Below, one piece after another: positions 256 through 928 of a stretch of DNA of 64,000 bases (positions are counted from its first letter, which is position 1; every line of letters starts with the position of its first letter). Location of the stretch: NCBI GenBank assembly GCA_964016885.1, contig OZ024742.1, positions 190,402,001 through 190,466,000 on the forward strand. The letters are read 5' to 3'. The DNA comes from Eledone cirrhosa. Its lineage: Eukaryota. The notes below the pieces were generated by a model, which saw nothing but the letters and a program-made list of their open reading frames with translations, was not told where the DNA came from and ran no database searches. The translations under genes were made by a program, and so were the position numbers.

Positions 256-928
256 ATATATAAGTATGTATACGTACATACATATATGTATACAGAGGTA
301 CAGTAGTATGTATATATACACATACATGCACACATATATATATGTACGTATGGATTTACCGAACATTATATATATGTGCATGTATGTATATATATACATA
401 CTACTGTACGTCTGTATACATGTATGTATGTACGTATACATACTTATATTTAAGTAACAGCCGTACTAAGAGTGAGAAATGAAATTTCGTTTCATTTTTT
501 CCATTTATCGTTTTCGGTGCGCCCGGCCGATTAACTCACTCGATATGTAAATTAAGCTGCTCAGCCGTTAATATGCATAAGGAAAGTATATACTTTCAGA
601 CGTTCAATCATCAGGCAGGAAGGTATACGATGCTGACGATAGCTAATAAGCTTGAAACTAGTACATCGTTCCTTTCTCAGTGTTGAACAAAAGGTTGCTA
701 AACACTACGGCTTAATTCGGCATGTTTGTTTACAAACAAACCGAGCATTATAATAAATGTTCGGTAAATCCATACGTACATATATATATATATATGTGTT
801 CATGTATGTATATATATACATACTACTGTACGTCTGTATACATATATGTATGTACGTATACATACTTATATTTAAGTAACAGCCGTACTAAGAGTGAGAA
901 ATGAAATTTCGTTTCATTTTTTCCATTT
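256..928 (+). mobile_element. Non-coding HHR mini-element, family A (mini-PLE/retrozyme-like): inverted 5' piece plus ~1.3 tandem units of ~420 bp
   Basis: 398-508 is repeated at 819-928. 256-368 is the reverse complement of ~750-870. Contains an HHR, is flanked by (TA)n, and has further copies at 12321, 33276 and 45817. Confidence 0.8.
627..669 (+). ncRNA. Minimal type I hammerhead ribozyme (family A)
   Basis: acgatg-CTGACGA-tagct aata agctt-GAAA-ctag-TA-catcgt: perfect 6-bp stem I, stem II, palindromic stem III, GUA cleavage triplet. Confidence 0.9.

Follow-up and report, generated by a model that had tools for sequence, protein, structure and literature searches.

The window, a stretch of 64,000 nt of the Eledone cirrhosa genome, contains four copies of a repeat that we refer to as family A, as well as a 5'-truncated Penelope-like element (PLE) of the Neptune type (table 1). 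The family A unit is non-coding, ~420–530 bp long, has a GC content of 0.33–0.35, carries one predicted type I hammerhead motif and is arranged in tandem repeats, from dimers to multimers, that lack LTRs. Its core has 15,261 exact matches in the genome (3.0 Gb), compared with 0 for the reversed-sequence control, and a 27-mer from its tail has 21,603. In agreement with an earlier note on this DNA, the four loci are copies of one family, with copy 1 aligning to copy 2 with 280 matches and 21 mismatches and to copy 4 with 288 matches and 35 mismatches, and the end of the unit runs into its start. The period is 420–422 in copy 1 versus 514 in copy 4, and this gap in length comes mostly from an internal (TA)-rich tract. 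The loci examined have no attached coding sequence, as the same note had stated, and the longest ATG open reading frame (ORF) within copy 1 is 60 aa.

Table 1. Positions of family A copies, Neptune-type PLE, SINE-like repeats (all window positions) and hybrid junctions (positions within genomic loci)
Feature	Position	Strand	Remarks
Copy 1, inverted 5'-truncated arm	256..367	-	108 matches/4 mismatches to 756-873; ends at no-tail site, then (TA)n
Copy 1, forward arm	367..929	+	1.3 units, period 420-422; ends at tail site, then (TA)n
Copy 1, internal tail copy	450..508	+	58-59 nt between both fixed 3' end sites
Copy 1, hammerhead motif	627..669	+	type I; predicted cut between 663 and 664
Copy 1, terminal tail	872..929	+	from end mapping
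Copy 2, single arm	12321..12690	+	subfamily with U-G pair in stem I; 3' end cut short, non-canonical
Copy 2, damaged ribozyme	12546-12588	+	U16.1 to C; stem I closing pair broken
Copy 3, arm without tail	33276..33565	-	inverted; 288 matches/2 mismatches to other arm of copy 3
Copy 3, tailed arm	33566..33982	+	starts inside ribozyme stem II
Neptune-type PLE, 5'-truncated	34855..38350	+	RT + GIY-YIG, one stop at 35746, hammerhead variant 38173, tail, (TA)n
Copy 4, arm without tail	45817..46569	-	1.4 units, period 514; intact hammerhead at 46154-46112
Copy 4, tailed arm	46570..46897	+	AACAC microhomology at join
SINE-like repeat	6380-6516, 14469-14677, 23338-23978, 26403-26608, 41982-42198, 44618-45325, 48413-48576, 61370-61561, 63105-63307		
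Hybrid junctions	L012:1458, L063:1783, L099:1922, L067:4631 and 6461, L162:1832		family A arm directly at 3' arm of autonomous PLE

The arrangement of the copies differs in part from the partial tandems described previously. At copy 1 the forward arm is a partial tandem (positions 367–508 and 787–930 align with 141 matches and 1 mismatch), but the first part of the copy is an inverted arm, the reverse complement of a downstream segment. Copy 4 does contain the tandem that had been noted, but it is built of one arm on the minus strand and one on the plus strand rather than of a single direct array. Copy 3 had been counted among the copies of the unit; it proved to be an inverted pair only, whose arms meet in stem II at the palindrome AAGCTT. 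It contains neither a whole unit nor a whole ribozyme, and its tailed arm retains half a ribozyme because the start of the arm falls within stem II. The (TA)n tracts that harbour copies 1 and 4 (145–226 and 45728–45797, respectively) each come after the end of another repeat, with a similar terminal motif (GTCACTCTTCTTTC) in both cases, a nested use of the same targets. Among Logan contigs of run X1, which is possibly the source sample itself, there are 62 in which the unit stops at position 508 and (TA)n comes next. Six contigs from run X5 (organism B) span the ribozyme and the part downstream of it (window 616–747), and family A is, therefore, possibly common to relatives.

The window is rich in other repeats. 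Hammerhead-like motifs of other families are present at 2613, 18630, 57287, 58726, 61181 (-), 62352 (-), and 1912 (-), several of them within inverted pairs, and the motif at 1912 matches the pseudo-LTR (pLTR) of a Neptune family in loci L228 and L237. Two further types of PLE endonuclease are represented by fragments at 54576–54983 (-) and 56340–56860 (+), one a Poseidon-like GIY-YIG type with a Pfam match and the second a type without one. A GA-rich minisatellite with a unit of 73–82 bp occupies 3449–5226, a dispersed SINE-like repeat of ~190 bp, partly in partial tandems, occurs at nine sites, and broken LINE-type reverse transcriptase frames are located at 7774–9498 (-) and 29970–30545 (+).

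The predicted hammerhead ribozyme

The hammerhead motif of copy 1 consists of a stem I of 6 bp, CUGANGA, a stem II of 4 bp, GAAA, and a stem III of 2 bp with the palindrome ACUAGU, and based on the motif, cleavage is predicted after GUA. The intact hammerheads of copies 1 and 4 differ at only three places, which are those named in the earlier note: N7, loop 2, and a change from A-U to G-U in stem I. A search of family A against Rfam gave no hammerhead either at the gathering cut-off or at an E value of 10 or less, and we therefore base the identification on motif and covariation. Low-complexity matches to miRNA and snoRNA models in that search were below the cut-off and were dismissed. We also rejected as a chance occurrence a minus-strand CUGAUGA...GAAA at 614, which has no stem I and is missing from the other copies.

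For the covariation analysis, we collected 242 full hammerhead motifs from 112 family A loci. Stem I pair 1.3 is A-U in 22 loci, G-U in 31 + 17 + 6, and U-G in 12, and inherited variation affects 1 of 16 core columns versus 73 of 224 columns outside the core (p = 0.026). The changes at pair 1.3 and the constancy of the core indicate, at the level of sequence, that the predicted hammerhead is under selection. Folding of the unit is well under that of shuffled sequences (z = -5.4 with the microsatellite left out). With helices I, II, and III of 6, 4, and 2 bp, the motif has the canonical metazoan form, unlike the minimal hammerhead of PLEs, which is described as lacking helix III and having a long helix II (7–8 bp) and a short helix I (PMC4209133).

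Insertion anatomy and the probable PLE machinery

We mapped the ends of family A segments in a position-ordered sample (L031–L100, the core matches that come first on contig C1, comprising 70 of the first 100 listed places or their merged neighbourhoods) and in a best-hit sample (L001–L030, the 30 best matches), leaving out lone low-complexity matches shorter than 40 nt. Because selection of either sample required an intact core or a whole body, the 5' ends are biased. In the position-ordered sample 87 of 104 segments, and in the best-hit sample 48 of 53, end at one of two sites located 58–59 nt apart. TA-rich DNA lies downstream of 76 of the 87 fixed ends in the former sample, and several of its 17 other 3' ends are chain breaks from internal deletions. 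The 5' ends are scattered around the unit. The earlier note had proposed a plot of starts and ends on a circular consensus; the mapping shows 3' ends that are fixed rather than permuted.

Most family A insertions consist of two inverted arms that are placed back to back, often via short microhomologies, and one of which is tailed and the other tailless. Back-to-back pairs number 35 + 19, both outer ends coincide with a fixed site in 23 + 15 of these, and 36 of these 38 pairs combine one tailed and one tailless arm (p = 2.7e-9). Family A thus bears on how PLEs build tandem and inverted insertions with one tail.

The Neptune-type PLE in the window belongs to a very young family, for which 150 scored matches have a protein identity of 97–100% and many 775-aa open frames. 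Its hammerhead has a rare U3-A8 core, and further local Neptune families have this core and the palindrome ACCGGU in common. In this young Neptune-type family with intact 775-aa ORFs, taken as an internal control (12 loci), there are two ends ~62 nt apart, and a single tail is present in all seven pairs with both ends in view. Because a Neptune PLE in the same genome has the same one-tail anatomy, a PLE enzyme likely moves family A. Published PLE insertions combine partial tandems with a 5'-truncated copy in inverse orientation, often have a tail at just one of their ends, and are biased to microsatellites (PMC8557442, PMC3846280). For one PLE protein, cutting and extension of both strands have been demonstrated in vitro, with two internal RNA start sites bounding the tail (PMC11167929). 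Given these published patterns and the Neptune control, mobilisation by PLE machinery is the best reading of the insertions, and we consider it very likely.

A sequence relative or an attached partner of family A among PLEs was not found in the loci searched. The Neptune ORF beside copy 3 was considered as an attached partner, but its tail differs from that of family A and it was inserted separately. An ORF encoding RT and GIY-YIG between pLTRs is absent from the family A copies examined, and in loci L001–L100 as well as in 27 tail-selected loci no ORF follows the tail, the sequence going back to the unit. The search for an autonomous partner through these 27 tail-only loci gave none, and 62 PLE loci of about eight families (150 scored of 10,596 GIY-YIG candidates) contained no homologue of the tail or the body. 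The situation that was to speak against a circular RNA in the earlier note, fixed linear ends attached to an autonomous PLE, is found in its first half: the ends are fixed at two sites, with the tail, inverted arm, and (TA)n target of a PLE, and no ORF is attached in the loci examined.

In 4 of 126 family A loci (L012, L063, L099, and L067) an arm is placed back to back with the 3' arm of an autonomous PLE, and L067 contains the same hybrid junction twice in inverted order. These junctions could represent two RNAs within one insertion. Two of them lie at internal AT tracts, and the one-tail rule is obeyed in none of the three Neptune cases, which makes nested insertion equally likely. If several Neptune-like families form hybrid junctions, the circle would be a promiscuous passenger of helpers to which it is unrelated in sequence.

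Array uniformity and the template for copying

Exact matches decrease from 14,760 to 13,326 over 9 nt after the predicted cut (90%) and from there to 12,542 over 10 nt across it (94%), and in the two samples, which are biased to intact cores, 1 of 104 and 0 of 53 segments have a 5' end that lies 6 nt or less from the cut. Family A cDNA passes the predicted ribozyme cut without loss.

Young family A arrays of 8–15 units carry haplotypes that are seen nowhere else in the genome. In L162, six of seven units are identical and all eight genome-wide matches to their haplotype are within this array; in L155, 10 of 14 units are identical and all 11 matches are within this insertion, in both of its arms, and a mirror test between these arms identified no ordered variant in common. 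The haplotype of L041, a further candidate, proved not to be private and belongs to a subfamily with 282 matches, arrays of which have 8 + 8, about 19 + 3, and 4 + 6 units; the period differs from array to array but is the same in the two arms of each. A substitution in the tail served as a marker with 37 matches at three loci (C6:37.90 Mb, C2:330.83 Mb, and C7). In the C6 array 11 of 13 monomers are identical over both arms with zero substitutions. The C2 array has the C6 monomer in 2 of 19 units, which are non-adjacent, and contains eight distinct substitutions (P about 0.004, calculated by hand); its substitution-free runs are at most two units long (five if microsatellite changes are ignored, the lengths then differing), compared with six and seven in C6. 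The C7 locus is a short two-armed copy of the C6 monomer. Because C6 is uniform and C2 is mixed, the C6 array is younger than the C2 array and is not an ordered copy of C2 as assembled; it fits a single monomer that was read many times.

Recurrent unit variants are present in L156/C2, L041, L160, and L161 (such as a substitution common to units 2, 6, and 11), and since they recur in non-adjacent units, DNA-level or multi-unit duplication also enlarges arrays. In older insertions the units of one locus resemble one another no more than they resemble the nearest other locus, the distance within a locus being the smaller one in 37 of 67 tandem and 19 of 57 inverted pairs; this comparison is informative for young insertions only.

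Reverse transcription around a circular or multimeric RNA, as proposed in the earlier note, gains support from the young uniform arrays and the seamless crossing of the cut, but must accommodate ends that are fixed and PLE-like. These ends likely mark where the PLE enzyme starts and do not refute a circle. We consider an RNA circle the probable template of family A copying. Among the sequencing runs listed as containing the family A sequence, none is of RNA. In the mechanism that we propose, tandem loci would be transcribed, hammerheads would excise monomers, and the monomers would be ligated to circles. Based on the biochemistry of a PLE protein (PMC11167929) and on the observed pattern of ends, the enzyme would nick both strands of a (TA)n tract, one strand being primed at the tail site and the other 58–59 nt upstream. 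Copying, which the DNA shows to pass the cut without loss, results in arms of 0.1 to about 20 units that are nearly identical, and the two 5'-truncated arms are joined as observed, often by microhomology. DNA-level duplication and (TA)n slippage, which are seen in some arrays, would follow.

The strongest alternative, to which we assign a minor but real probability, retains the same PLE machinery and has uncut linear read-through RNA as the template, with uniform arrays derived from uniform sources or from expansion or homogenisation of DNA after insertion. Seamless passage across the cut is equally expected from uncut RNA, which is the main template for the single PLE studied in vitro (PMC11167929), and local amplification is the model of bioRxiv 10.64898/2026.07.22.740005. 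Arrays do have higher-order variant patterns, including an L161 variant common to alternate units and the tail of the other arm, and a uniform source array may sit on an unassembled haplotype or the assembly may have been smoothed. However, the haplotypes of L155 and L162 do not recur in any other array of the genome, and C2 has much shorter substitution-free runs than C6. Furthermore, growth at the DNA level would require separate expansion of both arms, and the longest arrays are the least diverged, contrary to growth over time.

A cut linear monomer that is re-read through repeated end-to-end template jumps would explain identical units without ligation, but neither ends nor changes are in excess at the cut and jumps between molecules are expected to mix haplotypes, making this explanation quite improbable. 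Even less probable is that the copies have no independent life and are simply pseudo-LTRs left by some autonomous PLE that has escaped notice: although pLTRs are likewise characterised by a tail, an inverted arm, a hammerhead, and a (TA)n target (PMC8557442, PMC4209133), the tail leads back to the unit and never to an ORF in the loci selected by tail and in L001–L100, arrays reach about 20 units, and family A has its own subfamilies. A minisatellite or DNA-transposon-like repeat spreading at the DNA level only would account for tandem arrays and inverted ends but is refuted by the polarity of fixed 3' and ragged 5' ends, besides the asymmetry of the tail and the covariation of the ribozyme.

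Taken together, family A is best explained as a protein-free retroelement, a non-LTR retrozyme whose 3' ends are fixed at two sites and whose inverted arms are likely placed in (TA)n by the RT-endonuclease of a Neptune-type PLE, with a circular RNA of one unit as the likely template. A more far-reaching reading, which we offer tentatively and at slightly less than even weight, is that the arrays are the fossil of rolling-circle retrotransposition in an animal, in which a ribozyme-made RNA circle would be read for many rounds by a PLE enzyme dimer, with one subunit on each nicked strand and each with its own start site. One parent monomer would thereby give rise to a two-armed array of up to 15–20 units, with helpers possibly lacking sequence kinship. 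Independently of this reading, family A is a warning that much of the hammerhead-bearing "satellite" in such genomes arises during insertion. Since one genome combines more than 15,000 copies, two-armed arrays that are very young, haplotypes private to them, and Neptune ORFs of 775 aa that are intact, the roles of the circle as template and of the PLE as helper are directly testable.

Comparison with known systems

Non-LTR retrozymes have been described in animals, with circular RNA detected by Northern blot in coral, mussel, and axolotl and PLEs proposed as helpers (PMC7229834, Cervera and de la Pena 2020). Family A shares with them a non-coding tandem unit of low GC content, one type I hammerhead of canonical size, thousands of copies, and strong self-pairing, and judged by its DNA it meets the definition of a non-LTR retrozyme. 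The unit is longer than in these elements (420–530 nt vs. ~170–400 nt), and their circular RNA has been shown whereas family A is known here from DNA. Fixed ends, tail, and inverted arms are features of family A that we did not find in the passages of PMC7229834 consulted.

Retrozymes have also been interpreted as non-autonomous derivatives of PLEs, based on co-occurrence in vertebrates and pLTR homology (bioRxiv 10.64898/2026.07.22.740005). We reach the same conclusion of PLE dependence for family A; however, the link here is the anatomy of the insertions, no pLTR homologue having been found among the PLE loci searched, and the words "tail" and "junction" do not occur in the available text of that preprint. 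More generally, titles and abstract openings in the literature searched yielded no report of family A or of such insertion evidence, although the supplements of retrozyme papers may show end structures. The kind of element is thus already known, which the earlier note did not name, and within the literature searched the DNA record of the copying step is the new part.

Among autonomous elements, family A resembles the EN+ PLEs of the Neptune clade in its partial tandems, inverted truncated arm, tail at one end, microsatellite target, and two RT start sites. It differs from them in having no RT/GIY-YIG ORF, in its tail of 58–59 nt versus 30–40 (about 62 in the local Neptune family), in its much longer arrays, and in a ribozyme core that is C3-G8 rather than the U3-A8 of most local Neptunes. 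Chlamys PLEs such as MRC1 (PMC8557442) are likewise non-autonomous with multicopy head-to-tail insertions, but they are from a green alga, have 3' sequence in common with autonomous families, and belong to a clade described as mostly without canonical hammerheads. For the movement of retrozymes in animals, the circle as template and the PLE as helper have been put forward in the literature as hypotheses, and family A provides unusually direct genomic evidence that bears on both.
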